This document shows positions 1-42,214 of a DNA stretch of 42,214 bases, one piece after another (within the stretch, counting starts at the first letter, position 1; the number at the start of each line of letters is the position of its first letter). The stretch comes from a virus. Position numbers and translations under genes: made by a program. Under the pieces are notes generated by a model. That model did not search any database. It was not told where the DNA came from and worked only from the letters and a program-made list of their open reading frames with translations. The DNA lies in the IMG/VR virus record IMGVR_UViG_3300002460_000067, positions 1 through 42,214 of that record; one strand, 5' to 3'.

Positions 1-75
1 CTCTCTCTCTCCTTCTTCTCTCTCTCCTCTCCTCCTCCCGGAGTATCCCCCCCCTGCCTGCGCCTGGCCCGCCCA
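1..75. repeat. 75-bp exact terminal direct repeat (identical to 42140..42214); closure of a circular or terminally redundant genome
   Basis: Base-by-base comparison: 1..75 (ctctctctctccttcttc...gcctggcccgccca) equals 42140..42214. Confidence 0.95.
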
Positions 76-1143: not shown

Positions 1144-1172
1144 TTGACAACCGTGTATCATTATGATATAAT
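1144..1172 (+). promoter_or_regulatory. Consensus sigma70-type early promoter
   Basis: TTGACA (1144-1149), a 17-nt spacer, then TATAAT (1167-1172). A direct repeat CGTGTATCATT lies at about 1110 and inside the spacer (about 1152). Confidence 0.8.
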
Positions 1173-7869: not shown

Positions 7870-7896
7870 CAAAATAAAACCCGCTACATGAGCGGG
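7870..7896 (-). terminator. Intrinsic terminator (minus strand)
   Basis: CCCGCT (7880-7885) pairs with AGCGGG (7891-7896). On the minus strand it is followed by TTTTATTTT (7871-7879). Confidence 0.65.
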
Positions 7897-7912
7897 CTGT
7901 CAGGAAACAGAC

Positions 7913-10908: not shown

Positions 10909-11463
10909 GTGACGAAAACTGAAATTGCGGAAATTCTGCGCAGCCATGACGAATGGCTGGGCGGCGCAGACGCCGGGCGGCGCGCCGACCTGAGCAGCGC
11001 CGACCTGCGCGGCGCCAACCTGCGCGGCGCCAACCTGCCATTCGCCGACCTGCACAACGCCGACCTGCGCGGCGCCAACCTGCGCAGCGCCGACCTGAGC
11101 AGCGCCGACCTGCACAACGCCGACCTGCACAACGCCGACCTGCGCGGCGCCAACCTGCGCGACGCCGACCTGCGCGGCGCCAACCTGCGCGGCGCCAACC
11201 TGATTCTGGCGGGGCAGGATATTCGCGGTTTTTCGTTTTATGCATACGCCGATGACAATCATGTTGTCGTCATCCGCGCCGGCTGCCGGCAATTCCGCGG
11301 AATTGCCGCGGCTATGGCGTACTGGGAAGCGCGCCATACTGATGATGCAATCCTCATGGAGGATTGTCTGTCGCTCGTTAATCGCATAGCGCGGATGGCC
11401 GCCATCCGCGGCTGGAAACTCGAACCAGTTGGCGGACTGGACAAAACCGCCAAATCCATGTGA
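10909..11463 (+). CDS. pentapeptide-repeat protein
   Basis: About 18 consecutive A(D/N)LxG/S pentapeptides ([25 protein letters not shown] ...). GTG 10909 follows GAAGGTGGTGA and gives the N-terminus [19 protein letters not shown]. The track ORF starts at 10804. Confidence 0.85.
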
Positions 11464-23820: not shown

Positions 23821-24534
23821 CTACTCCTTGAAGCGTTGCTTCAATATATGGCGTGCGTACCCTATCGAATCCTTGCGTTTCAGTAACCGTGCGGCTTCGG
23901 CCTCCCATTCGTCGTCAGGCGTGATAGAAGCCCCACCGCCCAGATCGACATCGTTGGCCGCGCGTTTCTCTGCTCTAGCCGCTGCGGTGGCTGCGCTGCG
24001 TTGTGGTAGGTTTTTCAGCGCGTAGTCCGCTGCTAAATCCCATGCCTCATCTGCGTCTTGTGCGTTGGCGTATGCCTCGTACGGCACCCCCACCTCCGCG
24101 AAACGGTTCGTAATTCGCTGAAAGATTTTCGCCCGCCCCTCTTCGATTTGCTTCTGCTGCTGTAGCGCAGATAGCATTCGTTTCAGTTTGTTGTTCTCGA
24201 ACGCGAGCTTTGACGGCTCATCGAGTCCTTGCGTTTGCAGTTGTTCAAGCTGCTGCTCGTACCAAGCCTGGCGCTGCGCGTCTCCCTGGCGCTGGCGTTC
24301 GGCGCGGTCAAGCGCGCTCTGCAATGCCGCGTGCTTTTTGTCCTGCTCACTCTTCCATTTGCGGAAGTTGGGATCATCGTCCAAGGATGGTTTCTTGGTC
24401 GGCTTCCCCTGCTCTGCCTCTCTCGGCTGTCGTCCGGCTTCGTCGTCGCCTGTCGATAGGTCTGTCACCTCTGGGGTAACTACCTCTTCAACTGCGCCGT
24501 CATCCCCGGCCAACTCTTCTATCAGCTTGGCCAC
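23821..24534 (-). CDS. scaffolding protein
   Basis: Highly charged and coiled-coil-like, immediately upstream of the capsid gene. GTG 24534 lies 8 nt after GGAG. The upstream part of the track ORF covers a terminator. Confidence 0.7.
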   Translation of the reverse strand: MAKLIEELAGDDGAVEEVVTPEVTDLSTGDDEAGRQPREAEQGKPTKKPSLDDDPNFRKWKSEQDKKHAALQSALDRAERQRQGDAQRQAWYEQQLEQLQTQGLDEPSKLAFENNKLKRMLSALQQQKQIEEGRAKIFQRITNRFAEVGVPYEAYANAQDADEAWDLAADYALKNLPQRSAATAAARAEKRAANDVDLGGGASITPDDEWEAEAARLLKRKDSIGYARHILKQRFKE

Positions 24535-24564
24535 TGGTTTAACTCCTGTCGTAAGGTTTGGGAA

Positions 24565-24600
24565 ATAAAAAAGGCCACGTCTCAATTTGAGACGTGGCCT
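24565..24600 (-). terminator. Intrinsic terminator (minus strand)
   Basis: 12-bp stem spanning 24572-24600 with a 5-nt loop. On the minus strand it is followed by TTTTTTATTT (24571-24562). Confidence 0.8.
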
Positions 24601-24741
24601 TTCGGTTTCCCGCTAAGCGTATTTAGTTGTGCCCCGTAGGGCTAGGCGTCCAGGTAGGAATTGCACCCCAAGCGGTAGCTTATGAGACTACCGCCGCACT
24701 GCGCCCTGTCCGCAAACTTCCCGTGCCGCCACTTTGCTGGC
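24565..24741 (-). ncRNA. Non-coding leader / candidate ~175-nt RNA between promoter and terminator
   Basis: Bounded by the promoter at 24748-24776 and the terminator at 24565-24600. It has no credible ORF or SD and contains several hairpins, for example GCGGTAG/CTACCGC at 24672-24694. Confidence 0.55.
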
Positions 24742-24747
24742 ATCCTT

Positions 24748-24776
24748 AGTATATGCAATCTGGGGCTGATTGTCAA
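24748..24776 (-). promoter_or_regulatory. Near-consensus sigma70-type promoter upstream of the capsid genes
   Basis: Minus strand: TTGACA (24776-24771), a 17-nt spacer, then TATACT (24753-24748). Confidence 0.7.
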
Positions 24777-24792
24777 TAGTTGAGAATGATTC

Positions 24793-25164
24793 TCAGCTAC
24801 CATTCAAGGCTTTTTCATGCGTGGCGCGTTCCATTGCAATTTTTGCAGCGTGCTTCGGCGTGTTGGCGCGAACCCAGATCCTCCAGCAATCGGGATGGCT
24901 TTTATCTATATCGTCTCTCCACTCATCCGGGAACAGTACCGCAAAACACCCGCCCCGGTCAGTTGAATAATGGACTCGGTAGGGCAACCTTCCTCCGTGC
25001 TCTGGCATAGGGCCTTCGTTCAGTGTCCACTCTTCAGCGAATGCCTTCTGCTCCCCAATCGCTTGAACATGCGCAAGAGCAACCGATTTATGAGCCTCAT
25101 CGTAAACCGCAACAATATGATAATCGGAATAGGAACCCTCGGTAACGACATAAATTTTTTCCAT
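24793..25164 (-). CDS. hypothetical protein
   Basis: Track ORF of 123 aa. Confidence 0.6.
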   Translation of the reverse strand: MEKIYVVTEGSYSDYHIVAVYDEAHKSVALAHVQAIGEQKAFAEEWTLNEGPMPEHGGRLPYRVHYSTDRGGCFAVLFPDEWRDDIDKSHPDCWRIWVRANTPKHAAKIAMERATHEKALNGS

Positions 25165-25527: not shown

Positions 25528-28500
25528 CTATTGCGTTTTTATTCCACGTATCCACGACGGCGACCACTTGCGCGGCTCGCCTGGTCGCAGTTGTTTCCCG
25601 GCATTCAGCCAATCCAAATCAATCTGCGGGTTCTGGTAACTGGCCATGCGTGGCGGCTCTGCTAATCCGCTGGCCATGCTCTGGCCGTACACATTCGGCA
25701 TATTGACGATTGTTTTGCGCTCAGTCGGTTGGTAGCCGCCGTATCCACCATGAGCACCCCCGCCGCCTCCACTGCGCGGCGTGTATTCTTTCTTCTCTCT
25801 GCCATACCACCAATCCGCCCACGCGTTATACTGCGGGTTCTTCTCGTACCATAACCGGCGCTGGGTAGCGTCCCACCCGCGCTTGAACTGAGAAACAACA
25901 TCCCAAATGTTGTCGCCGAACATTTCTTTGGCCGTCGCATAGTCCGCGCCGAAGTTATATTTAAAATCGTCGCTGCCTTCCTTAGATTCGTCGTAGTTGG
26001 CGGGTCGGCCATTCAACCATGCGCCGAAGAGAAAGGCTTTGGGATTCTTGTCGTAGTATTGCGCTCTGGCCGCCTTGGCCTCTGGCGTGTCGGCATAGGC
26101 GGGTGTGAGCGCCCAGCGTCCCAGCGCGTCATCGCCAAACTCTTTGAGCGCTGGAGCCAATTCCTTGCTGTTGTAGGCGTACAGGTTGATCGCACGCATG
26201 ACGGGATTTTTAGTAAGGTACTCCTTACGGGCATCTCCCTTGGGAAGCGAGTAATACTCGTCCCACATGGCCGCCCCACCCGTATCAAAGAACTTTAGCA
26301 CGGCGCTGCGCCTGGCCGCCCACTCTGCGCGGGTCATCTCGCCCTTGACCCATTTGTCATTCATCGAAGCATAGTCGCGCGCTGTCTTTAGGTCTGCGCT
26401 GCCGGTTGTAGCTGCGGTGGGCTGCTCACCAGGCAAGGGCGAAAAGGTTGGCTGTACTGGCGCCCCCTTGCGCGTGCTGCCGGTCGCGCTCATCTGTGAC
26501 GGTATAGCCTCACCGCCCAGAATGCTCGCATTCAGTTCGTTAGCGCGCTGTGTCCAGGGATTAGATGCAGGCTGGTTCAGCACATTATCCCAATTGCGAT
26601 TGACCCACGGGCTGGGCTGTTGTTCCTCAGCCGGCGCATAGGGGTCGAAGGTTCCCAATGCCTGCCGTTCGCTACCCACGGGGCGCGGCCCGGTGTAGCC
26701 TTCCCCCGCGCCTGCGTTGGGGATAATCGCTTCATCCTCTGGCGTGGTCGTCGCGTTGGGATCATAACTCGCCTGGTCAACGTCTTGGAATTCTTTTTTC
26801 CACTCCTTGTAGCCGGTGTAGAGCATGTGCTCTTCCGGGTTGGCCTTCAGCCACGCTACAAAAGCGGCCTTGCCTTCGTTCGGTACGCTGTTGAGAATGT
26901 CGAAAATGTTGGGACCAAATATCTTGACTGCCTCGTCATAGGCGGCCCCGTAACTGTCTGTACCTCTGGCGTCACCAAAGCGCCGCCCTTTTAGCCAGAG
27001 TTTGGCCGCTTCTGCATTCGGATACTGATCGTTAAATGCCGCGGCCTCAGCGTAATAGGCGTTTAGTTGCGCCTCTGTTGCCCCATCGCCGGGATGCTTG
27101 GGCCCATTCTGCACCATCGCGAACGCGTCCGCCCCAAAGCGTTTGACAAATTCGTCATACTCCTGCGGATGGAAGCTGGCAAGCATTGCCTGATCGACAA
27201 GCGGGTTGGCTTGCTTGTATGCCTTGCGTTCTTCCCCAGTTTTGGGCAGGGCGTAATACTGAGATAACAACTCATTCCCTGCCGCCCCCATGCGCTCGTC
27301 TACGTTCTTCTCGTTCAGCTTATATTGCGCGTCCTCTACCTCTTCAACAAAACTTTGCCGGTCGCTCCAGGCTTTTTCCACATCCCCGGCATATCTGTTC
27401 TCATACCCGCGCAATAGCTCACTGGCGTACATATCCTTGACCATCTTACGCGCGGCATCCTTCCAGGGATCAGGGTACGTGTCATCCTGATTCAGCAACT
27501 GCGTGAACTGGCGGTCGTAGTAGTCGAGTCTGGCGGTGTCCCATTTGGCTTTGTCCAGGTAATAGGCTTTCTTGTCCTCTGGACTGGCATCCTTCCCGGG
27601 GTAGACAGGCTTCCCCGCCGGCTTGTGACTGAGAACCGACTGCACAAATCCCGCGGCATGTTCAACGGGATTCATGTAGGTAGTGTTGAGATGTTTGGTT
27701 TCCTTCTCCGGCAATGATGGATACTTCGCCTTGAGTTCCTCTACCCTATCCCAGAAAGGTGATTTGAAATCATTTACCTCTTTGCTCGTGGCGTCCGGAT
27801 TGTCAATTAAATATTTAGCAACCGCCTGCGTCATCTCATTCATAATGACGCCGTGCGCGTTATAGTATTCGTTCTGTACGGCCTTCTCCCCTGGGCGCAA
27901 CCGTTTGCGATCATCACCCTGCGGATAGAGAACGCTGTAATTGAAGGTGGCGTCAAAGGCTTCGGGCTGCATTCCGGTGTAAGCGTTGACGGCTTCTCTG
28001 CTGCCGTAGGGGTTGGTTACCTCATTGTAACCTAACTTTGGGCGCGTCTCTTTCATCTCGCGCATCTGCTGTTCTTCGGGCGACAGGTTATAGCCCGGTA
28101 TGCCGGTGAGAAATGCCATTGCGCGGTTCTGAAATCTATCCCACCCTGCCGCCGATGCGCCCTGTTGCCAGGCCCCGGCTGCCCCGGCTGATTGCTCCGG
28201 TAGCGGTTGACTGCCCGTCTGCTGCTGATAGCCTACGTCACTGGCCCACATTGCATCCTGCGGGTTGACCTCCCCGCGCAGTCCGGCAAGCGCCACCTGT
28301 TTCCCGGCGCGCCCATAGTCGTATTCGTCGCCATAGGATAGCGCGCCCTGCGGTCCCATCTGACCGGTCATGCCCTGCCGCGCGTAGCCCGCAAGCTTGT
28401 ACAGGGGCAGGACATCCCCCAGTTGGAATTCGTCAGTTCTCCTCTTGCCGCCCGGTAATGGGTTGCTCTGGTCGAGCGCGTAGTTCATCGCATAGCTGGC

Positions 28501-31500
28501 GAGCGGATACATGGCGGGGGTGTATTTCTGGACGGTCATCTTCCAGCGCTCAAACTCACTGCGCGCGTCATCGGGATTGACGAAATCGCTGCCCAGATAC
28601 ATCGCGATGGGTAGCGCAAATGTTAATGGGTTGAGTAGGCGATCCGGTCCGAAGGGTAGCGGATTCTGCACCGTGCCGCGCAGATGTTCCGGTACGTTGT
28701 TTTGCTGATTCTCCATCTCAATCGCCCGTTGCGACTCATACCACATATTGACGATACCGGGTTTCTGTACGGCGCGCGCCAGCCAGTTTTTAGCGCTGTG
28801 ACTCCAAAAATAATGAAACGGAAAAAGTATAGCCAGCCACACATCCAGATTGCGCTTGTCGTGATAGTTGAGCATGGCGAAGTTGCCCATCTGCTCGCCG
28901 GTGCGCACAGCCCCCGCCAAGATGTTATCGTACTGCGGGAGCATCTCTTGTAGCGCATCGAGCACGCGCAGTTGCTGCGCCGGCGTCATCGTGTTCGGCT
29001 TGCCCGCCAACAGTTCCGGCAAGCGTTGGATGATTCGTTTTTCCGCGTCGCCCAAGGTTCTGATCGTGTGCTGCGCGACCTCGCCCATTTCGGGCGCTTT
29101 CTTGCCTAGTAGCTCGGTGAGGTTGCTATTGACGCCGCTCACTAGTTTGTATAGGTCGGTTTGTTTGGCGCTCTCGGTCAGGCCATAGGGATTCCAGCCA
29201 CTGGCGTTACTCGCCAGTTTATAGGGCGTTTCGTGTAAAACTTGCAATTGGTCAATCAATTTTCCGAACGCCTGCCCCAGCCCTACACCCATCTCTGTTT
29301 CCATCGGCGTAGAAACAAAGGGCGTTTTTAGCCTAACATAATCCTGGACTAGCGCCTTCACGCTGGCCTGGTCAGTAATCTTTACTCCGGCAATGGTTAG
29401 CCCGCTGAATTTGTTTAGCTGCGCCGCGGTCAGCGGATTTTTCCCCGCCGCCACTTTCGCCGCAAGTTCATCAATCGGAGGCAACTGGTATTCATAGGCA
29501 TAATCTTGCCAAGCCCTACGAATGTCGCCGGAGGTAAACCCCTGTGTACTCTTGGCCAGGGGTGGCTTCGTGGGTGTAGCCGCGGGCAAAGTTTTTACTT
29601 CCACGTCTGGTCCTGTGGCTGTATATTTTGCGTAATCGGTCGGCTGGTCGCCTGCGGCCTGTGTGAGTTTATAGGCGTCCTGTTGCGCCAGCGCTTCCGC
29701 CTCTTGTGCCGCCCACTTCGCCGCACTGTCGGCGTCAAGCTCCTTGATCAGCGTATCGACAATGTTCGTGTTCTCCCCGATGACCCGGTAAAAGTCCTGC
29801 AATACTTTCAGCGGCACTTCGGGCAGCGCGGCGGCGAGGGTTCCCGCCTTGCGCTGCTTGGCCAGTTCCACCGGGTCGGCGAATCGTTCAAGCGCGCCGG
29901 TCGCCACATTGCGCGCTTGCCAGTAGCCATCCTGTAATTTCCCGACGAGTTGAAACTCGCCGCCCGCAAAATCATCGGTCCACTTGAGCGCGCCCTTCGC
30001 CATATCCGCCACGCCACTAGCCACAATTAACCGCTTGACGACATTGTTGTGGACAACGGCATTGTCAAAGAACTCAGCCCACACTTGATTACGCAGTTTG
30101 TAATAGGCGTCCGTTTGCTTGGGTAGCATACTGGCGCGTTTGTCGGCCAGGAATGCCGCGGCCTTTGCGCCTAGCTCCTCCATCTTGCGTAGTCCATCGG
30201 CCATCAGGTCAAGACTGTTTTGTGACGGATAGCGTCTGAACGCACTGAAAAGCTCTACAGCGCTCTTATCGACATACTTGCGGTTAGCATCCAGTGCCTT
30301 AGCAAACACGTCGCCTGCGGCTTGTGGTGAGCCTACGCCGAGTCCTGCGGTGCGCGCCGCCTGAATCTCTGCCTCATCGTAGGATGCATAGCGCTTGATG
30401 ACATCGAACCAGTCATACGCGCCCTCTACAGGTTGACCCTGCTCGAGTTTAATCAGATTCTGCCGCGCTGAGTCTACGGCCCGCTGGAAGAAGTCAGTGA
30501 ATCCGCTATAGATTTGCTTGGTTCCTTCAAACTTGCGCGCCCAGGCGTCACCCGTGTTGGCTGCAATGGCCGCCTTGCTCAACTGGTCTATCTGCGCCCT
30601 GGCTGTAGTGCGCCAGTCGTACCATTTGGCGAGCAGGTCCATGGCCACGTTCAATGACTGCGGGTCGGTCGCTCCGACGAGATCGCCGCGCAGGGTTGTC
30701 CACAATGCCGACTCTGTATCGGCGATTTGCTTCATGAGCGTCTGCGCTTCCTGGCGCGCCACGTCACCCGGCATCCCCCCGCGCTTGGCGGCTTCGGTCA
30801 TGCTGTCTACTACGTCCGCGCCGTCCTGCATCGACTCGAACTCGGTCCACACGCCACGCCCGGGTTGCGGTGGCGCTCTGTTGAGTAGCTCGCCGGCCTG
30901 CTTAAACTCTTCGCCAAATATCTGGCGCACTTTGGCCGCCGCTTCATCTAACTGATTCGGTAGACTCTCGCTCAACAGCGTGTTGAGTTTGGCCCACCCT
31001 TCCGCCGATACCAGTTCATCAGGTACGCCCAACTCTTTGAGTGAGAACGGTATCACCTGCCCGCTCGTCAACTTGCGCAGGGTGGCCGCCATCTGCTGTT
31101 TGTTGCCGTTAATGCCCACATCCGCCACGGTGGCGCTCAAACTCTTGGCCAAGTTGGGATCAATGCCCAGGCCAGTCAAGGTCTGCTCAAAGCCCTTCGC
31201 CGCGTCTGTCCAGTTGGAGGTCAGGTAGCGCTTGAAGGGTACATAAGTAGCGCGTAATGCAAAGTTTTGCTCGCCGAATGAGATGACGCCGAGGATGTCA
31301 GTATTCCCAAAGGGAATCTTGTACAGCCGCTTCATCAGATTGCTATAGCCCTGGGCTATAGGGTTGCCGTTAAATAGGCGCTCGGCCCAGTGCAGTCCGC
31401 CCATCACTTCCTCTGCTGATTGCCCAAGGGCTGACCCTGCCGCCTCTGCTGTACGCGTGGTCGGCGCCATACCTCCAAATTTGGTCATCAAATCGTTCAT

Positions 31501-33897
31501 GATTGCCTTGGTCGGGAGCAAGGTCATGGTGTTGTCGGCGATCAGCGTAGCCGCCGCGTTGGTAGCATTTTTTATCCAGTAGCCTGGACTCATGCCCAGG
31601 TACATATCAGACAAAATTGCTTTCTGTATACCCCATGTGGCAGCCAGTGGATTCTGTCCCCCTGGCCCCGCCGCGGCAATAGCCTTCTTCAATTGTTTGG
31701 CTTGAAGTTGTGCGTCATAGGGCAACATCTCCGCGGACTGTTTTAATACTTTGCCCGCTTTGTCTACATATTCAATGACCGACGTTCCCGTCGCGGTGCG
31801 CGTCACGCGGAAGTTGACCGCGCCCGCGGGTAGATTGTCCAGCGTCTTGAGTCCGAACAATTCGCGGCTGGCCTTATAGAGTACGTCGTTGAACTCGGCA
31901 AAAAATTCCTGCGGGGCAAATGTAGCCGGGTCGCCGGTCAAGCTGCGCATATTCAGCAATGCCTCACGCGCCTTGACGATCACCGGATATTGTTTTAGTA
32001 GTTCGGAGTTGGCGACAACGCCCGGCCCCCACTTGGTAATCTCGGTTGAGCCAGGCAGTACAACCCCCTCCACCAACTGGCGCGGGTCATTCGTCCACAG
32101 GTCGAGCACGGCGCGGGCGCTCGTCTTGTCGGTGACATCTGACATAATGTTGGCCGCGGCGCGCCAGAGGATGTCCGTCGCCATGTGCGCGTTCGTGTCC
32201 GCAGTCCTGGCGAACGGGTTGACCGCGCTCCACCACCCGCCCACGTTGCCGCCCAGGGCGGTCTTGGTCGCGTCGTCGATTACACCGTCCAGCGCGTTCA
32301 ATGCCTGTGCTGGCGTCATGTTCATAAGCGCCGCCGCCTTTGCCGCCTGTAATGCCTCACGCGACGGCGCCAATGAGATGTTCAGCGGGTCTAAGATCAC
32401 CCCGCCCAAAAATTCCGCCCAAGCGTTGCCGTGTTCGTCAATGATTTCCGTCTTGGTTTTATTTTTAAGTTCGTTGGCCTGCGCGCCGTACTGCGCGGCT
32501 TCTAAATATTTGTTGTTTACTGCGTCAAAAGTTTCTTTGGTCATCGGACGATTAAGGTAAAATTTATAAGCGTCCTCGGTCAAAGGCCTCGTCGAATCGG
32601 TAAGCCCTTGCGCGGCCGCCAATGCCTGCTGCGCTTTCTGCTCAAGTTCGGCAACCATATCATCTTGGTTGAGAATGGCGTCAATCGCGCTGCGTGTTTC
32701 CTCTGGCCCGGCGATCAGTTTGACCATCGCCGCGTTCGCTTCAGTACGCAGTTCAGGCGGTAGGGAATCAAAGGCCATGCGCACGGCTTGACTATTGCGC
32801 AGATTGTCCCAGAAGAGTTTTGCCGCAGTATCGCCTAACGCGTTGGGCGCGTTGGGCGTATCGTCAAATAAATCCTTCACGCGGTTGGGATTGCGCGGGT
32901 TCAGCGTGCGATTAATGGCCTCGCCCGCGGCGCTCGCCAACTGCCCCACGCTCACATCCTCACCACCCAGAAACGCACCTGTGCCGGGAATCTGCGTGGT
33001 TTCAATCGCCTTGCCGCCCAGGGAAAGCGCGGTCAATACGTTCCGCGCGTTGTCCCCCAAGGCGTCTATTCCCCGATTGCTGCCTTCGGCCAAACTATCC
33101 TTGGCTTGCTGTTCCAGGTAATCATACCCAGGCGTCGCGCCAAACGCGGCCTTCAGCGCCCAGTCTACTGGCCCCACTTCCTTGGCATAATCAGCGCTGA
33201 GTCCGGCGATCTTCTGGGCGCCTTGCCAGCCGCCCAACTGCTGCCACGCATATTTGGCCGCATCGATAACGGTGGGCGCATAGCGCGTCACGCCCCAGGC
33301 GTCTTCCCGCGGCGGCGCGTATGGGTCATAGGGGGCGGTAGGGCTGCCCATCGTGGGCGCTTGCTGTTGCTGCCCGGTCATCGGGTTGACCCCGGTGTCT
33401 GGCCGCGTCAACGCATAATCAACGGTCGCCGGTTTTACATCGTACAGGTTGGGTCTCACCTGTGGTTGTCCAGTGTTAGCGGAGGAGAGCGGGTTATACT
33501 CCGGTTGTTGCGGTGGACCATTACGCCAAGCGTCCATAGCATTGAGCCACTTGTCTTCTGGTGGAGCGGATGGAGCAATGGGCGGACCCACTGACGGGAC
33601 CATGGGGCGCGTCTCGCCGGGGCGTAGTGGACCCTGCACGGGCACATTGATAGGGCGCAAAACATCAGAGACGGAAACACGCTGCGCGGGGGCAGTCGCA
33701 TGTTCGGCCTGCCGCCATTGCGCCATTGCCGTCTCTAGCGGATCGGCGCGCTGAACGGAAGCCTGCGGCGCGGTCGTCGGCGCCACGGCCTGCCGCCACT
33801 TCGCCGCCTGGCGGGCGCGCTCCGCTTCAAATTCGGCCTGCGCCGCGGCTTCATCTTCGCCGTTCCACCAATCGGTAATCCCATTCCACCAAGACAT
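25528..33897 (-). CDS. giant virion-module protein, 2,789 aa (function unknown; possible internal or ejection protein)
   Basis: A single uninterrupted ORF with GAGGGA 7 nt upstream of the ATG. It lies between the portal and scaffold genes. I recognise no catalytic motif. Confidence 0.85.
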   Translation of the reverse strand: MSWWNGITDWWNGEDEAAAQAEFEAERARQAAKWRQAVAPTTAPQASVQRADPLETAMAQWRQAEHATAPAQRVSVSDVLRPINVPVQGPLRPGETRPMVPSVGPPIAPSAPPEDKWLNAMDAWRNGPPQQPEYNPLSSANTGQPQVRPNLYDVKPATVDYALTRPDTGVNPMTGQQQQAPTMGSPTAPYDPYAPPREDAWGVTRYAPTVIDAAKYAWQQLGGWQGAQKIAGLSADYAKEVGPVDWALKAAFGATPGYDYLEQQAKDSLAEGSNRGIDALGDNARNVLTALSLGGKAIETTQIPGTGAFLGGEDVSVGQLASAAGEAINRTLNPRNPNRVKDLFDDTPNAPNALGDTAAKLFWDNLRNSQAVRMAFDSLPPELRTEANAAMVKLIAGPEETRSAIDAILNQDDMVAELEQKAQQALAAAQGLTDSTRPLTEDAYKFYLNRPMTKETFDAVNNKYLEAAQYGAQANELKNKTKTEIIDEHGNAWAEFLGGVILDPLNISLAPSREALQAAKAAALMNMTPAQALNALDGVIDDATKTALGGNVGGWWSAVNPFARTADTNAHMATDILWRAAANIMSDVTDKTSARAVLDLWTNDPRQLVEGVVLPGSTEITKWGPGVVANSELLKQYPVIVKAREALLNMRSLTGDPATFAPQEFFAEFNDVLYKASRELFGLKTLDNLPAGAVNFRVTRTATGTSVIEYVDKAGKVLKQSAEMLPYDAQLQAKQLKKAIAAAGPGGQNPLAATWGIQKAILSDMYLGMSPGYWIKNATNAAATLIADNTMTLLPTKAIMNDLMTKFGGMAPTTRTAEAAGSALGQSAEEVMGGLHWAERLFNGNPIAQGYSNLMKRLYKIPFGNTDILGVISFGEQNFALRATYVPFKRYLTSNWTDAAKGFEQTLTGLGIDPNLAKSLSATVADVGINGNKQQMAATLRKLTSGQVIPFSLKELGVPDELVSAEGWAKLNTLLSESLPNQLDEAAAKVRQIFGEEFKQAGELLNRAPPQPGRGVWTEFESMQDGADVVDSMTEAAKRGGMPGDVARQEAQTLMKQIADTESALWTTLRGDLVGATDPQSLNVAMDLLAKWYDWRTTARAQIDQLSKAAIAANTGDAWARKFEGTKQIYSGFTDFFQRAVDSARQNLIKLEQGQPVEGAYDWFDVIKRYASYDEAEIQAARTAGLGVGSPQAAGDVFAKALDANRKYVDKSAVELFSAFRRYPSQNSLDLMADGLRKMEELGAKAAAFLADKRASMLPKQTDAYYKLRNQVWAEFFDNAVVHNNVVKRLIVASGVADMAKGALKWTDDFAGGEFQLVGKLQDGYWQARNVATGALERFADPVELAKQRKAGTLAAALPEVPLKVLQDFYRVIGENTNIVDTLIKELDADSAAKWAAQEAEALAQQDAYKLTQAAGDQPTDYAKYTATGPDVEVKTLPAATPTKPPLAKSTQGFTSGDIRRAWQDYAYEYQLPPIDELAAKVAAGKNPLTAAQLNKFSGLTIAGVKITDQASVKALVQDYVRLKTPFVSTPMETEMGVGLGQAFGKLIDQLQVLHETPYKLASNASGWNPYGLTESAKQTDLYKLVSGVNSNLTELLGKKAPEMGEVAQHTIRTLGDAEKRIIQRLPELLAGKPNTMTPAQQLRVLDALQEMLPQYDNILAGAVRTGEQMGNFAMLNYHDKRNLDVWLAILFPFHYFWSHSAKNWLARAVQKPGIVNMWYESQRAIEMENQQNNVPEHLRGTVQNPLPFGPDRLLNPLTFALPIAMYLGSDFVNPDDARSEFERWKMTVQKYTPAMYPLASYAMNYALDQSNPLPGGKRRTDEFQLGDVLPLYKLAGYARQGMTGQMGPQGALSYGDEYDYGRAGKQVALAGLRGEVNPQDAMWASDVGYQQQTGSQPLPEQSAGAAGAWQQGASAAGWDRFQNRAMAFLTGIPGYNLSPEEQQMREMKETRPKLGYNEVTNPYGSREAVNAYTGMQPEAFDATFNYSVLYPQGDDRKRLRPGEKAVQNEYYNAHGVIMNEMTQAVAKYLIDNPDATSKEVNDFKSPFWDRVEELKAKYPSLPEKETKHLNTTYMNPVEHAAGFVQSVLSHKPAGKPVYPGKDASPEDKKAYYLDKAKWDTARLDYYDRQFTQLLNQDDTYPDPWKDAARKMVKDMYASELLRGYENRYAGDVEKAWSDRQSFVEEVEDAQYKLNEKNVDERMGAAGNELLSQYYALPKTGEERKAYKQANPLVDQAMLASFHPQEYDEFVKRFGADAFAMVQNGPKHPGDGATEAQLNAYYAEAAAFNDQYPNAEAAKLWLKGRRFGDARGTDSYGAAYDEAVKIFGPNIFDILNSVPNEGKAAFVAWLKANPEEHMLYTGYKEWKKEFQDVDQASYDPNATTTPEDEAIIPNAGAGEGYTGPRPVGSERQALGTFDPYAPAEEQQPSPWVNRNWDNVLNQPASNPWTQRANELNASILGGEAIPSQMSATGSTRKGAPVQPTFSPLPGEQPTAATTGSADLKTARDYASMNDKWVKGEMTRAEWAARRSAVLKFFDTGGAAMWDEYYSLPKGDARKEYLTKNPVMRAINLYAYNSKELAPALKEFGDDALGRWALTPAYADTPEAKAARAQYYDKNPKAFLFGAWLNGRPANYDESKEGSDDFKYNFGADYATAKEMFGDNIWDVVSQFKRGWDATQRRLWYEKNPQYNAWADWWYGREKKEYTPRSGGGGGAHGGYGGYQPTERKTIVNMPNVYGQSMASGLAEPPRMASYQNPQIDLDWLNAGKQLRPGEPRKWSPSWIRGIKTQ

Positions 33898-37457: not shown

Positions 37458-37473
37458 AGGTTTGTCCACAAAA

Positions 37474-37508
37474 TAAAAAAGGCCACATGACACAATGTCA
37501 TGTGGCCT
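37474..37508 (-). terminator. Intrinsic terminator (minus strand), second copy of the conserved cassette
   Basis: 13-bp stem spanning 37480-37508 with a 3-nt loop. On the minus strand it is followed by TTTTTTATTTT. Confidence 0.8.
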
Positions 37509-37534
37509 TTCGGTTTCCCGCTAAGCGTATTAAA

Positions 37535-37750
37535 TTATCCAAAGCGTTCTAATCGCTTCACCGCCTTGGATTTACGGATGACCGGCAAATGAAAATGATT
37601 TTCGGTCGCACGAATGAATTGACAAAGCGCGCCGCGCACTTCATTCATCTGCCGGCGCTCTTCCACGCCCTCTATTGTATCAGGAGGGGGGAGCGTAGTC
37701 AACATGTAATATGCCAGCCGATACAGTCCAAGCCATAGATGGTCGTTCAA
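37535..37750 (-). CDS. hypothetical protein
   Basis: Track ORF with an ATGA overlap with the upstream gene. Confidence 0.55.
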   Translation of the reverse strand: MNDHLWLGLYRLAYYMLTTLPPPDTIEGVEERRQMNEVRGALCQFIRATENHFHLPVIRKSKAVKRLERFG

Positions 37751-37935: not shown

Positions 37936-39377
37936 AGATACCCCCGTATCTCGCTCTTGCGCTCACTCTTGCGGCGCTCGATTGCGCTGCCAAACTTGTC
38001 GAACAACCAATATCCTAGCGCCTTGAACGCATCGTTGTTGGCGTCGATGGGGCGCTGCGCCTGGCTCATGCCCTCCGTCCAGTCCGGCCATTTGTACAGA
38101 CCCGCCTCGGCAATAATCCCGTGCGCCCGGCCTTGGACATCACGATCACTGCGCATGTGATGGGCAAAATATAGGAGCGGTTGGCCCGCTATCGGATGCA
38201 CGCGCAGGCGGTGGCGCACCACCTCTATCCCCTCCGGGATAGAGATCTTCCTGCTGCGCAGATTCAACCCTGTCTCTTCGCGCCAGATTTGCACCTGGCT
38301 CTTGTTGGCGTGATGCTGCTTGCCTGCTACGTCAATCACGCCCGCCGCAACATGCTTCCACCACGGCTTGGCCACGACCAGCGGAATCACATCGTAGACG
38401 CTCGTGTCGTGTTCGTATATCTCATCTATCACCCTGACCTCATGTAACTGCACCTGCCGCCCCGAGGCTACGGTCGTGAAGTGCGGCAACGGTCGCCACT
38501 GCATCGCCAACACCGCATAGGTGTGCTGCGCCGGGTCAATCGCCAATTCAATCGGCAAGGTCTTGTCGAAGGGCAACGGCTTTACATGCAGGCGCCGGTC
38601 GAATATCTTGAATACCAATCCGCTACTCTTATAGGGAACGGCGGCCACACGCTGTAGAAATAATTCCGGTGTAATGCCATTCTCCAGGTCTTTAATTTTT
38701 GAGTCCAGCCTACCCAGGGGGAACTTGGCCGTGTTGCTCCAACTGGGCAGGCTGAAACTCCTGCCGCCCTCTGGATTGCTGCCTTGCCACTTCTCCCACA
38801 AGTCAGCGTACCAGGGCTGGGCGTCCTCCAGGGTGCCGGTCATGAAAATGCGCGAGCCATGTTCTAACGCCCGCTCCTGCAATTTCTCATAACTGGCGTG
38901 CGTCTGTTGCCCCATCTCCACGCCCGCCAACGCATGGGGCGCAAAGCTGGCAACCGTCGCCAGGTCTTTGGCGCTCTTCGTCTGCACCCGACATCCCCAT
39001 ATCGTGGTAAGGCTGCGGCTCCCCTTCTCCGGGATAGACTCGCTCTCTATGAGCGCCATTGCCTTGAGTGGGGCGTACATATAATCAAACTCGCCCTTCG
39101 CCTGTTCGTAGTCGGGGCCCACCAACCAGATCAACCCGCGGTCGCGGAAAATGTGTTTAAGTAACTCCATCGCCAGGAACTGAGACTTGCCAGCGCGAAT
39201 TCCACCCGTCACCATCACCAGGCGATTCGTGCATTCGTGGATTTCCCGCTGCCCACGACTTACCGTCCGCTCATTCCCTTCCAGGTCGAACACCGGAAAA
39301 TACCCTTCCGTGGGCTTATAGCCTGCTTCAGCCCAGAGTAGGCGCAATATCCGCGCCTGTTCAGCTTCTGAAAACAT
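37932..39377 (-). CDS. terL: terminase large subunit
   Basis: Walker A 'VMVTGGIRAGKS', suitable size, and the portal gene 0.4 kb downstream. ATG 39377 lies 5 nt after AAGGA. The track ORF's 54-codon N-terminal extension runs into the repeat array and is probably not translated. Confidence 0.9.
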   Translation of the reverse strand: MFSEAEQARILRLLWAEAGYKPTEGYFPVFDLEGNERTVSRGQREIHECTNRLVMVTGGIRAGKSQFLAMELLKHIFRDRGLIWLVGPDYEQAKGEFDYMYAPLKAMALIESESIPEKGSRSLTTIWGCRVQTKSAKDLATVASFAPHALAGVEMGQQTHASYEKLQERALEHGSRIFMTGTLEDAQPWYADLWEKWQGSNPEGGRSFSLPSWSNTAKFPLGRLDSKIKDLENGITPELFLQRVAAVPYKSSGLVFKIFDRRLHVKPLPFDKTLPIELAIDPAQHTYAVLAMQWRPLPHFTTVASGRQVQLHEVRVIDEIYEHDTSVYDVIPLVVAKPWWKHVAAGVIDVAGKQHHANKSQVQIWREETGLNLRSRKISIPEGIEVVRHRLRVHPIAGQPLLYFAHHMRSDRDVQGRAHGIIAEAGLYKWPDWTEGMSQAQRPIDANNDAFKALGYWLFDKFGSAIERRKSERKSEIRGYL

Positions 39378-39383
39378 TACTAT

Positions 39384-39904
39384 CCTTTGCTGCGCCGCGC
39401 TGCGCCTGGCCTTGCCTTTGCTGGGCGTGGCCGTGCGTTGCCTTTGCTGCGCCTTTGCTATGCCTTTGCTATGCGTCGCATTGCTGTGCCTTTGCCTTGC
39501 TGTGCTGCGCGGTGTCATGCGCTGCCTTTGCTGTGCCATGCGTGGCCACGCCTTTGCTGCGCCTTGCTAAACGTTGCCTCGCATCGCCCTTGCATGGCCA
39601 AGCGACGCCATGCCTTTGCTGTGCATTGCTCTGCGGGACCATGCCTTTGCTGTGCAGCGCATTGCTGCGCGGTGTCATGCCTTGCCTTTGCTGCGCCGGG
39701 CGTCGCGGTGCGATGCCTTGGCTGTGCCCTGCGGCGCCTTGCCTTTGCTGCGCCGGGCGTCGCGGTGCCTTGCCTTTGCTGCGCCTTGCTAAACGTTGCC
39801 TCGCATCGCCCTGGCGTGGCCAAGCGACGCCCTGCCTTTGCTGCGCCGGGCGTGGCGATGCTGTGCTACGCCTTTGCTGTGCGGGGCATAGCATCGCCTT
39901 TGCT
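39384..39904. repeat. Array of 16 GCCTTTGCTGYGC boxes (non-coding)
   Basis: CCTTTGCT starts at 39384, 39415, 39441, 39452, 39463, 39489 (variant), 39525, 39551, 39613, 39644, 39685, 39742, 39773, 39835, 39871 and 39897, all in the same orientation. Nested longer duplications occur at 39551-39612 / 39773-39834 and 39504-39520 / 39664-39680. Confidence 0.9.
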
Positions 39905-40483
39905 GTGCATATAGGAAAATCTGCCGTAACTGGCGTTGCGCCATTGACCTAAACCACGATACTTCCCGTAGTCTAGCCATTCTTCCAACAGTTCCGGCGT
40001 AACGACCTTGCTGTCCAACACGTCCAACGTGAAAGCAATGCTGCTCCCCGCTGCGATCATCTCGCTGCACGCTAACGCTACCCGTTCGCCCTGCGCGGTC
40101 TGTGCCCGCAGTGGTCGTTCTAATGCGCCAATCTCCCCGCACACCGTTATAGGAATCTGGCGCGGGAAGACGAACACCAGCCCGTCGATTATCTTCTTGT
40201 AGGCTCTCAGCTTCTTGCTGCCCGTTCCATCCACCCGCGCCAACATCCCGCAGGTATCTTTAAAGAAGCCCTTAATCACATAGTCATAAAGAATAGGATT
40301 GCCCGCCGCGTCCCGGTGGAATCCCGTCTTGCCCTTGTCCTCACCGATGGTGTCAACCTCATCGTGAGGAAACTCACCTACCCCGTTCGTCACGCGATTC
40401 TCCGCGATGTACGTCGAATAAATTTCCTTATCCATCGGAGCCGTACCCAATAAAGGTTCCGTAAACGTCAGTACAATTTTCAT
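39866..40483 (-). CDS. hypothetical protein with RAMP-like sequence hallmarks (205 aa)
   Basis: ATG 40483 follows GGGGGGA. The protein begins MKIVLTFTEPLLGTAP, has 'GNPILYDYVIKGFFKDTCGML' in the middle, and has a glycine-rich 'GLGQWRNASYGRF' near the C-terminus. Confidence 0.6.
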   Translation of the reverse strand: MKIVLTFTEPLLGTAPMDKEIYSTYIAENRVTNGVGEFPHDEVDTIGEDKGKTGFHRDAAGNPILYDYVIKGFFKDTCGMLARVDGTGSKKLRAYKKIIDGLVFVFPRQIPITVCGEIGALERPLRAQTAQGERVALACSEMIAAGSSIAFTLDVLDSKVVTPELLEEWLDYGKYRGLGQWRNASYGRFSYMHSKGDAMPRTAKA

Positions 40484-41520: not shown

Positions 41521-41565
41521 TAGGGTAGGGTTAATTATCGTAACCGGATAATTAACCCTACCCTA
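41521..41565. repeat. Perfect inverted repeat, 18-bp arms and 9-bp spacer
   Basis: tagggtagggttaattat (41521-41538) pairs with ataattaaccctacccta (41548-41565). It lies in a divergent intergenic region. Confidence 0.9.
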
Positions 41566-41570
41566 TATTA

Positions 41571-41759
41571 TACCTTGTTTTACCTTATAATACATTATTT
41601 TACCTTATAATACCTTATAATACATTATTTTACCTTATTATACCTTATTTACACAATGTATTCTAATGTATTATAATGTATTTTACCTTATTATTATAAT
41701 GTATAATACATTATTTTACCTTATAATACATTATTATACATTATTTTACCTTACCTTGA
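41571..41759. repeat. AT-rich array of TAC(C/A)TTAT boxes
   Basis: TACCTTAT at 41581, 41601, 41611, 41631, 41641, 41684 and 41717. TACATTAT at 41591, 41621, 41707, 41727 and 41737. Inverted ATAATGTA at 41673 and 41696. Variants lie at 41571, 41747 and 41752. Confidence 0.85.
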
Positions 41760-41771
41760 AAGGAACCATTT

Positions 41772-41963
41772 ATGTCCACCAGACAAGTGACTGTTTACCT
41801 GCCCGAAGACCTGCACGAAATCCTGAAAGAGATTGCCAATCAACGCTGCTATTCACTCAATAAACTGATCATCTACCTCCTGCGCAATCAGAAGGAGTTC
41901 ACGAGACAAGACCCCGAAACACAGGAGGAGATTGACGACGAAGCGACCCGCCTGTTCGGCTAA
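41772..41963 (+). CDS. ribbon-helix-helix (CopG/Arc-like) protein
   Basis: 'RQVTVYLPEDLHEILKEIANQRCYSLNKLIIYLL' is a typical RHH N-terminus. The SD is GAAAGGAAC, as in the early genes. Confidence 0.7.
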   Translation: MSTRQVTVYLPEDLHEILKEIANQRCYSLNKLIIYLLRNQKEFTRQDPETQEEIDDEATRLFG

Positions 41964-42139: not shown

Positions 42140-42214
42140 CTCTCTCTCTCCTTCTTCTCTCTCTCCTCTCCTCCTCCCGGAGTATCCCCCCCCTGCCTGC
42201 GCCTGGCCCGCCCA
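42140..42214. repeat. Second copy of the 75-bp terminal repeat
   Basis: Identical to 1..75. Confidence 0.95.

Follow-up and report, generated by a model that had tools for sequence, protein, structure and literature searches.

In phage lambda, a strong promoter for the host RNA polymerase (PR') is followed by a ~180-nt non-coding leader (6S) and by an intrinsic terminator (tR') located directly before the late genes. The same general layout is found in a viral genome from the IMG/VR database, record IMGVR_UViG_3300002460_000067, of which the stretch analyzed here covers positions 1 to 42,214 (42,214 nt; hereafter, the window). In the window, two promoter-leader-terminator cassettes, one preceding the genes for a putative scaffold and the major capsid protein (unit 1) and the other preceding a gene in the portal position (unit 2), appear to gate the structural genes, and the leader of unit 1 additionally contains a degenerate tRNA-like element. 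The general form of this arrangement is already known; what is new, insofar as it can be established by sequence comparison, is the combination of a conserved, degenerate tRNA mimic in the leader with a duplicated, phage-specific module adjacent to the terminators. Unlike lambda, which has one such cassette, the window contains two, and the sequence they share adjoins the terminators rather than the promoters; no Q homologue was found among the ~50 open reading frames (ORFs) scanned, among relatives, the gene upstream of unit 1 is not conserved and the distance from the start site to the terminator varies between 21 and 141 nt. Moreover, the phage in the window is not lambdoid: no DNA similarity to cultured phages was detected, and the best match of its capsid protein among cultured phages is 28% identical.

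Antiterminator RNAs provide another comparison, namely, the nutL and nutR sites of lambda, which mediate N antitermination, and elements of the RAT/ANTAR type, the latter of which overlap terminators. As in these systems, a short element located between the promoter and the terminator is near-identical at two sites in the genome and differs between related phages, and it is predicted to form a small hairpin of the GNRA type (CGG-GAAA-CCG) that could be extended into the foot of the terminator stem; unlike in these systems, no N, BglG-CAT or ANTAR protein was found, and the hairpin stem is only 3 bp long. The resemblance of CGCUCUUA in the window to boxA (CGCUUAG) is weak. The likeness of the two copies within a genome is reminiscent of nutL and nutR and, likewise, of promoters that co-evolve with a phage polymerase. 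As for the contents of the leader, Stx phages, 933W among them, carry tRNA genes after PR', and P22-like phages present a similar case. Among the latter, phage L carries two tRNA genes, the first one 46 bp after the start of the late mRNA, and only some of its P22-like relatives have tRNAs at this location; excision of these tRNAs from the late mRNA is not established (PMC8022706). The cargo of the unit 1 leader is similar to that of phage L and Sf6 (PMC8022706) in its position tens of nucleotides after the late start site, its patchy presence among relatives and its presumed excision by host enzymes, but it is non-standard (it is missed by the standard ARAGORN and Rfam searches, lacks both a proper D-arm and CCA, and tolerates inversion of its anticodon hairpin), and it sits between the promoter and the terminator. 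The third parallel comes from six Pseudomonas phages, in which ONT-cappable-seq detected 42 promoter-proximal terminators in 5'-untranslated regions (UTRs), some of which stop more than 90% of the transcripts, and 29 short RNAs ending at such terminators were proposed as candidate non-coding RNAs (ncRNAs) (PMC10914365). There, a start site is followed by a terminator within 250 nt and then by a gene, and most of the transcripts are short, with a minority reading through, as predicted for the cassettes described here. Those cases were mapped experimentally, in unrelated phages, and the portion of that report considered here mentions no shared module or tRNA-like content, whereas the window is known from comparative sequence alone.

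Unit 1 consists of the features listed below, all of which are on the minus strand of the window. Promoters were scored against the E. coli-type consensus, which may not be that of the host. Related viral contigs are denoted by L-numbers; two of the loci came from a metagenome scan with the capsid protein and the others were obtained via protein look-ups.

24793-24795, minus strand: stop codon TGA of the upstream gene, which ends a 123-aa ORF 16 nt before the -35 hexamer
24781-24795, minus strand: dyad TGAGA-N5-TCTCA (TGAGAATCATTCTCA), which overlaps the upstream stop codon and is centered near -47 relative to the predicted start
24748-24776, minus strand: sigma-70-type promoter TTGACA-17-TATACT (-35 hexamer, 24776-24771; -10 hexamer, 24753-24748), matching the consensus at 11 of 12 positions
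24714-24747, minus strand: 5' leader preceding the tRNA-like element, weakly conserved (here the window is 56% identical to L001 or L126)
24645-24713, minus strand: degenerate tRNA-like element, 69 nt, identified as a D-armless ARAGORN cloverleaf and by covariation and conservation
24604-24644, minus strand: trailer and pre-terminator module, which includes AACTAAATA (24628-24620) and ACGCTTAGCGGGAAACCGAAAGGCC (24620-24596)
24562-24603, minus strand: intrinsic terminator with a 16-bp stem (24603-24569; 8 G-C pairs), a 3-nt loop and the tail TTTTTTATTT that extends to 24562
23821-24547, minus strand: Shine-Dalgarno (SD) sequence AGGAG (24547-24543) and putative scaffold gene (GTG start at 24534-24532), the first gene after the terminator, 237 aa
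22663-23817, minus strand: gene for an SU10-type major capsid protein (PF17236 SU10_MCP, E = 2.6e-56; phrog_1328, E = 1e-47)

The promoter, the non-coding leader, the terminator, the SD and the GTG start codon had all been reported in the first-pass annotation of this DNA, and their positions on the minus strand were confirmed, as was the absence of a credible ORF in the interval; the hairpin, described there as GC-rich and 12 bp long, is indeed present but has the longer, 16-bp stem. The promoter-terminator-SD layout is conserved at 11 of the 11 related unit 1 loci and at 6 of the 6 unit 2 loci. A single 11/12 promoter match is not rare, with ~0.56 expected by chance per genome, and a local scan yielded 3 promoter-like sites against 4.3 expected; we judge the unit 1 promoter to be real not because of this match but because of its conservation across the related loci, where the -35 hexamer TTGACA is invariant (11/11) and the -10 hexamer is found at the same place, for an overall match of at least 10 of 12 positions. 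Transcription of unit 1 is predicted to start near 24741, 138 nt from the foot of the terminator stem, resulting in a leader of ~140 nt. The free energy of the terminator hairpin is -25.4 kcal/mol, and its stem shows compensated changes in L001, L126 and unit 2; at the related unit 1 loci, the hairpins range from -22 to -33 kcal/mol, and the T-run, 6-8 T in length, ends 14-32 nt before the start codon. Among the relatives, the spacing between start site and terminator varies (21 to 141 nt), and the initially transcribed region has no conserved -10-like pause element at a constant offset from the start. In all the cassettes, 20-190 nt separate the promoter from the terminator downstream of it, which in turn is located 14-32 nt before the first gene of the structural block. 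Because the gap between the T-run and the start codon has no room for another promoter, the structural genes require read-through of the terminator, and gating of the structural, or late, genes by termination is thus supported.

The regions surrounding the conserved core of unit 1 vary. The gene directly upstream of the cassette (123 aa) is replaced by a different gene in the relatives. The perfect dyad TGAGA-N5-TCTCA occurs only once in the window and is exclusive to unit 1; it is found with the same geometry and at the same place in L001, L126, L002 and L122, and is degenerate in L124, L128 and L139, whereas in L141 it is downstream of the promoter. The dyad is a probable candidate binding site for a dimeric DNA-binding protein, plausibly the LuxR/GerE-type protein (7865-7497), which would add control of initiation at unit 1. 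Two more dyads, of the type GTATGAG...CTCATAC, are present upstream of the cassette in L124 (1570-1650), and in L002 (3040-3110), the cassette is preceded by an additional promoter-like sequence, TTGATC-17-TATACC, and then by three tandem GGAAATAACC units. Downstream, the sequence V-A-K-L-I-E-E-L at the start of the putative scaffold is retained in the relatives; this protein (24534-23821) has no family match in Pfam or PHROGs, and the scaffold label is inferred from its position only. A coding function of the leader was considered and rejected: the 53-aa ORF (24803-24642) contains stop codons in both L001 and L126, and none of the frames is open in the window, L001 and L126 alike.

The second cassette spans 37702-37470 on the minus strand and consists of two parts:

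37674-37702, minus strand: promoter TTGACT-17-TACAAT with an extended TG, within a conserved 71-aa gene (37750-37535)
37470-37536, minus strand: pre-terminator module (AATTTAATA, then the 25-mer ACGCTTAGCGGGAAACCGAAAGGCC) and terminator (stem, 37511-37477, then a T-run)

The terminator hairpin of unit 2 is 156 nt downstream of the predicted promoter start, and 17 nt separate the end of its T-run from the ATG codon (37457) of a 646-aa gene in the portal position. The 71-aa gene that harbors the promoter (37535-37750, minus strand; LNDHLWLGLYRLA...) encodes a protein with a basic C-terminus, and both the protein and the internal promoter are retained in the relatives; the promoter reads TTGACG-17-TACACT or TACAAT, or, in distant relatives, the perfect TTGACA-17-TATAAT, and is always located inside a small ORF.

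The two cassettes share a terminator-proximal module, designated ACGCTTAGCGGGAAACCG in the window. The 25-mer ACGCTTAGCGGGAAACCGAAAGGCC occurs in this genome exactly twice, once in each unit, and the units are identical over AATACGCTTAGCGGGAAACCGAAAGGCCAC, the foot of the stem and the T-run, with the center of the stem having diverged through compensating changes. The module is common to both units in all three phages for which both units are known, and its sequence differs between the phages: in L001/L143, the two copies are TTAATAGTATTTAGCCTTCAGGGGAAACTCGGCGGGTGATCTC and TAAATAGTATTTTACCTTCCGGGGAAACTCAGCGGGTGATCTC, the second copy of L001 being located at the terminase-portal junction and containing one mismatch, whereas in L002/L137 the shared module is AGCCTAGCGGT...AGCGGG. 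The motif AAYTWAATA is found four times in the window, against 0.38 expected, only the two cassette copies being intergenic and on the sense strand; it recurs 12-25 nt upstream of most of the terminators. By contrast, no common sequence was found in the promoter regions of units 1 and 2, and the dyad is absent from unit 2. The small hairpin of the module, CGG-GAAA-CCG, extends to GCUUAGCGG-GAAA-CCGAAAGGC, overlapping the foot of the terminator stem; in folds of truncated (nascent) RNA, this extended hairpin forms and covers the first 4-6 nt of the stem. A T4-type late promoter was considered, given the TATAAATA-like sequence AAnTAAATA, and was rejected as a general late promoter inasmuch as its sole intergenic sense copies are those in the two cassettes.

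The leader of unit 1, which the first-pass annotation had treated as featureless, folds far better than its shuffled versions (z-score -5.3) and contains the 69-nt tRNA-like element, the parts of which are as follows:

24713-24707 paired with 24652-24646, minus strand: acceptor-type stem, GCGGACA/TGGACGC, with a G.A/A.G tandem mismatch
24695-24671, minus strand: anticodon-type hairpin, 9 bp, with the loop CUCAUAA (24686-24680) and a CAU anticodon
24669-24654, minus strand: T-arm, GGGG-UGCAAUU-CCUA
24645, minus strand: discriminator C, followed by TAG rather than by CCA

The D region is rudimentary, with a 3-bp D stem, a 3-nt loop and no GG; position 8 is G rather than the U of tRNAs, and the T-loop has UGC in place of UUC. 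In the D-armless (mitochondrial) mode with default thresholds, ARAGORN finds a cloverleaf with a CAU anticodon at 24713-24645, and makes the same call in L001, in L126/L127 and in L004/L005, an unrelated AT-rich phage, whereas in the standard mode it reports no tRNA or tmRNA at this locus. A search of the whole window against Rfam at the gathering thresholds produced no match, including none to a riboswitch or cis-regulatory family, and a permissive search of 24450-24900 (E up to 10) gave only noise; the best match of the element within the Rfam tRNA clan, to the plant virus family Tymo_tRNA-like, is weak (12.4 bits). With the Rfam tRNA model (RF00005), none of the copies in the window, L001 and L126 gives a match below E = 0.1, whereas the more complete relatives L004, L119 and L040 pass it, with 33-35 bits against the gathering score of 29. 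In an alignment of seven elements, 84% of the cells in the acceptor, anticodon and T stems pair, compared with 42-59% in slid controls; 9 of the 17 pairs change on both sides, and none of 500 shuffles reaches the observed score. The same three stems were found independently by RNAalifold.

Further evidence of the origin of this element comes from its conserved 15-17-mer GGTGCAATTCCTACC, which is present at more than 119 loci in viral contigs. Because ARAGORN identifies 22 of these loci as standard tRNA genes, the conserved block corresponds to the tRNA T-arm and the start of the 3' strand of the acceptor; several recurrent loci are non-canonical tRNA-like genes, and the rest, among them L006 and many further occurrences of the 15-mer, fall by chance within coding sequences. 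A standard phage tRNA-Met(CAU), L095, has exactly the same loop region, GTCTCATAAGC, and T-arm as the element in the window. Thus, the element is tRNA-derived, although it is not a standard tRNA. Reduced mimics of this kind are known among plant-virus tRNA-like structures, mascRNA and D-armless mitochondrial tRNAs, all of which, like it, mimic the acceptor and T-arm of a tRNA while their D-arm is reduced or missing; the element described here differs from them in that it is encoded by a DNA phage, lies inside a leader RNA and has no 3'-terminal CCA, with homology limited to the general tRNA fold. The elements of the L004/L005 and L119 types are low-scoring tRNAs in ordinary intergenic positions, outside promoter-terminator cassettes. 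The T-loop UGCAAUU, in which G replaces the near-universal U55, is shared by many of the phage tRNA and tRNA-like genes that contain GGTGCAATTCCTACC (L007-L121), including a widespread group with a UCC anticodon, the L119 type, that standard ARAGORN misses and the Rfam tRNA model accepts, with scores of 33-35 bits. A short resemblance to an RfaH ops site (GGCGGTAG, within the tRNA-like hairpin) is a coincidence, given that its key T is G in L001 and L126.

Comparison of the window with L001 and L126 shows that the element is the most conserved part of the locus at the nucleotide level. The capsid protein of L001 is 82% identical to that encoded in the window, and between these phages, a leader core of ~70 nt is nearly unchanged while its flanks have diverged, with compensating changes in the internal leader hairpin and in the terminator. 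Among the three phages, identity is 87-90% for the tRNA-like element, 74-77% for the capsid gene DNA, 71-79% for the scaffold gene DNA, 57-70% for the trailer and 64-68% for the terminator. Because the conservation of the element exceeds that of the surrounding coding DNA, the element is under purifying selection; the stable phage ncRNA of ~175 nt anticipated in the first-pass annotation was close to the mark. The 19-nt anticodon hairpin of L001 (3101-3119) is the exact reverse complement of that of L126 (1631-1649), yielding AUG, with only one difference in the remaining 50 nt, which looks like a template-switch event within the hairpin. Given this exact inversion, the loop is not constrained as a decoding anticodon, and a decoding role of the tRNA-like RNA is probably to be discounted. 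The element is missing from 8 of the 11 relatives (L002, L122, L124/L125, L128/L129, L139, L141, L142 and L130), the capsid proteins of which are 70-87% identical to that in the window. In each of these eight, the TTGACA promoter is still followed by a strong terminator and the SD, with a leader 21-46 nt or more in length. Being absent from these relatives that keep the terminator, the element cannot be a terminator-control device; it is best described, from this distribution, as optional cargo in a conserved promoter-terminator slot.

The identical 75-nt, C/T-rich ends of the window (1-75 and 42140-42214) indicate that it is a complete genome of ~42.1 kb, represented either by a circular assembly or with a terminal repeat. 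The recognizable genes encode the large terminase, the capsid protein, tail proteins, a VapE-type primase/helicase (799 aa), an Erf recombinase, a PAPS-reductase-like protein and an HNH endonuclease. The only regulators recognized are two proteins with helix-turn-helix (HTH) domains, one of the LuxR/GerE type (7865-7497) and the other of the Cro/CI type (8486-8136). The scan of the ~50 ORFs against Pfam and PHROGs revealed no RNA polymerase, sigma factor, or member of the Q or N families, in agreement with the first-pass annotation with respect to Q, and no BglG/CAT or ANTAR domain; N-like proteins are small and hard to detect, so that the lack of an N family match is not decisive. No integrase was found in the genome. 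Because neither an RNA polymerase nor a sigma factor was detected, the host RNA polymerase is most likely used throughout, which fits the presence of several consensus sigma-70 promoters. A promoter for a T7-type single-subunit polymerase was considered, given the slight similarity of TAATACGCTTAGCGGGAAAC to TAATACGACTCACTATAGGGAGA, and rejected: no RNA polymerase is recognizable, and the 799-aa protein is the primase/helicase. A small terminator-like hairpin (AGCCCGCTCATGTAGCGGGTT, then TTATTTT; 7878-7898, minus strand) is located 13 nt before the LuxR/GerE-type gene and lacks the shared module.

The interpretation that we favor, to which we would give a slightly better than even chance, is that the two cassettes gate the structural genes by termination, with read-through set by a factor acting near the terminator, and that the tRNA-like element is processed out of the short RNA made in unit 1. 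The promoter would fire with the host RNA polymerase, and most transcripts would stop at the terminator, yielding an abundant RNA of ~180 nt, from which host tRNA-processing enzymes (RNase P at the 5' end and an RNase E/Z-type activity at the 3' end) would excise a stable tRNA-like RNA of ~70 nt. The leader left after the excision would start about where the primary transcript starts in the phages that lack the insert, so that the element would be self-excising cargo. The scaffold, the capsid protein and the products of the downstream genes would be made only by polymerases that pass the terminator, and the level of read-through would be set by a phage-specific factor for which the RNA module next to the terminator would serve as a nut- or RAT-like site. 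A factor is favored because the module is near-identical at two sites 13 kb apart in each genome and divergent between genomes; that it acts next to the terminator is plausible, and likelier than loading at the promoter as in the case of lambda Q, because the cassettes share the phage-specific pre-terminator sequence and nothing at the promoters. Several observations weigh against this interpretation. A candidate RNA-binding antiterminator was not found, and the small cassette-adjacent proteins (71, 84 and 123 aa) have no relatives in Pfam, PHROGs or the PDB sequences; the alternative hairpin is much weaker than the terminator, which is retained in the full-length minimum-energy fold; and the GGGAAAC-type motif is absent from the more distant relatives, L141 and L142. 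The likeness of the modules within a genome could also reflect gene conversion or recent duplication, without any trans factor. Start site, efficiency of termination and processing are all predictions, the promoter was judged by a consensus that may differ from that of the host, and efficient recognition by RNase P is not assured, given the acceptor-stem mismatches and the lack of CCA.

Gating could also be achieved with no phage factor at all, by constitutively leaky terminators: a strong promoter coupled with a partial terminator would insulate the structural-gene block from transcription entering from upstream and fix its expression level, and the short RNAs would be by-products, except for the tRNA-like cargo. 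Such passive attenuation is consistent with the failure to find an antiterminator among the ~50 ORFs and with the persistence of the layout even where the leader is only 21-46 nt long, and has precedents in the partial read-through that is widespread at promoter-proximal terminators in phages (PMC10914365) and in the intra-operon terminators of unexplained role in P22-like phages (PMC8022706). However, the long, G+C-rich hairpins (-22 to -33 kcal/mol, followed by 6-8 T) are expected to be efficient terminators, which, ahead of the most highly expressed genes, would be wasteful, and leakiness does not explain a pre-terminator sequence that is near-identical within a genome and different between genomes; we consider this explanation less likely, but a serious contender. 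It is unlikely that the cassettes are primarily small RNA (sRNA) genes, that is, a free-standing sRNA in unit 1 and a 3'-UTR-type sRNA in unit 2, with the module serving as a seed or chaperone-binding region of an RNA that regulates in trans, a reading that would be compatible with read-through feeding the downstream genes. The anatomy, with a promoter, an RNA of 60-190 nt and a Rho-independent terminator with a long U tail, is what such genes would have, and the module is conserved within the genome. A promoter internal to a coding sequence combined with the gene's own terminator is the classic layout of 3'-UTR-derived sRNAs, and unit 2 has precisely this organization, its promoter being internal to the upstream coding sequence and using the terminator of that gene. 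Phage ncRNA candidates derived from 5'-UTRs have been described (PMC10914365), but the reverse complement of the module is not found elsewhere in the genome with up to three mismatches, no target was found, and the invariable location of the terminator 14-32 nt before the start codon of a structural gene ties its position to that gene.

The first-pass annotation read unit 1 as a single PR'-like switch for ~11 kb of late genes. Termination gating stands, but the second cassette at 37.7-37.47 kb implies at least two gates per genome, and the mechanism of the lambda PR'/6S/tR' switch, in which a promoter-bound Q-like protein modifies the polymerase at a sigma-dependent pause such that it resists all later terminators, is quite unlikely to apply. 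The near-consensus promoter, the ~175-nt leader and the terminator ahead of the late genes all match that switch, and the conserved dyad adjacent to the promoter could be a binding site; furthermore, the missing Q homologue is weak evidence because at least five unrelated Q sequence types exist, and lambdoid late leaders can hold tRNA genes (PMC8022706). Nevertheless, the two cassettes have nothing in common at their promoters, that of unit 2 being located inside a coding gene and having no dyad, and the shared element adjoins the terminator, the opposite of what a Q-type mechanism predicts. The position of the dyad, upstream of the -35 hexamer, is more in keeping with binding of an activator or repressor than with a Q-binding element. 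The variable start-to-terminator distance, the lack of a conserved -10-like pause element, the replacement among relatives of the directly upstream gene, which occupies the place of Q in lambda, and the lack of a Q family match all point in the same direction. Turning to the element in the leader, a working tRNA (Met, or Ile2 with CAU) with its own promoter and terminator that would supplement late-gene translation appears very improbable, even though the covariation supports a cloverleaf, phage tRNA-Met genes such as L095 have the same loop CUCAUAA and the same T-arm, and L004, L119 and L040 pass the Rfam tRNA model: the standard ARAGORN search and the Rfam tRNA model (E < 0.1) both fail to find it, G8, the 3-bp D stem without GG, the UGC T-loop, the tandem acceptor mismatches and the lack of an encoded CCA all depart from a functional tRNA, and the inverted anticodon hairpin of L001 (AUG) shows no constraint for decoding. 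The least credible alternatives, in our estimate hardly to be entertained, are that unit 1 is a self-contained riboswitch or attenuator or that the tRNA-like segment is a remnant of an attP site. The order of promoter, structured RNA, terminator and SD is the classic riboswitch layout, and the leader fold is stable (z-score -5.3), but there is no Rfam family match, the structured part is missing in 8 of the 11 relatives, all 8 of which keep the terminator, and the alternative pairing is weak. Sites of the attP type often contain the 3' part of a tRNA gene (PMC8022706), whereas here both halves of the acceptor stem are present. An attP or prophage origin was rejected given that no integrase was found and that neither relatives of the capsid protein nor matches to the T-arm 19-mer occur in 185,579 representative bacterial and archaeal genomes.

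Several other features of this genome are worth recording. The 2,789-aa ORF between the portal-region genes and the capsid cassette (25528-33897, minus strand) has no Pfam or PHROG match; its homologues of 2,252-3,236 aa occupy the same position in the relatives, and that of L124 has only a weak match to DUF3626. In the early region, a perfect 12/12 sigma-70 promoter, TTGACA-17-TATAAT with an extended TG, is located at 1144-1172 (plus strand), and a 93-nt repeat on the plus strand is present at 1774-1866 and 2111-2203 and, in part, at 1493-1526. The two full copies are 99% identical, contain a G+C-rich hairpin (CCCCTCACATAGGTGGGG) and end in GAAAGGAA; each copy is located just before a small early ORF, and the repeat may be a repeated regulatory leader. 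An AT-rich region at 41545-41773, in which a 10-nt unit (TTATAATACA / TTATTTTACC) is repeated periodically ~13 times, is found beside an 11/12 promoter (41648-41677, plus strand) and could be an origin or a divergent-promoter array. A 15-nt tandem repeat with at least 13 copies is found within an ORF at 10962-11246, and CCTTTGCTG-type repeats with a spacing of 26/31 nt are found just upstream of the terminase gene (39375-39909).

If the favored interpretation is true, this clade times or doses its structural genes in a manner unlike that of lambda Q, via several gates that carry the same phage-specific, terminator-adjacent element, and the conserved module would then offer a way to identify the factor acting upon it, in a clade that has no cultured member and in which most proteins have no family assignment. 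More tentatively, the locus might combine an undescribed form of antitermination, in which a phage protein or RNA factor acts on the module at two or more terminators, with a new class of tRNA mimics that have no D-arm or CCA and tolerate inversion of the anticodon arm, serving, rather than in decoding, as a decoy for tRNA-targeting host defenses or as a processing handle. In practical terms, each cassette is a compact pairing of a strong promoter with a strong terminator. More generally, tRNA-derived RNAs that are missed by the standard tRNA finders can be conserved cargo of phage leaders, which suggests that leaders annotated as 'empty' are worth screening with relaxed tRNA models, and the tRNA-like element bears on the question of why phages carry tRNAs, that is, codon supply versus evasion of tRNA-targeting defenses.

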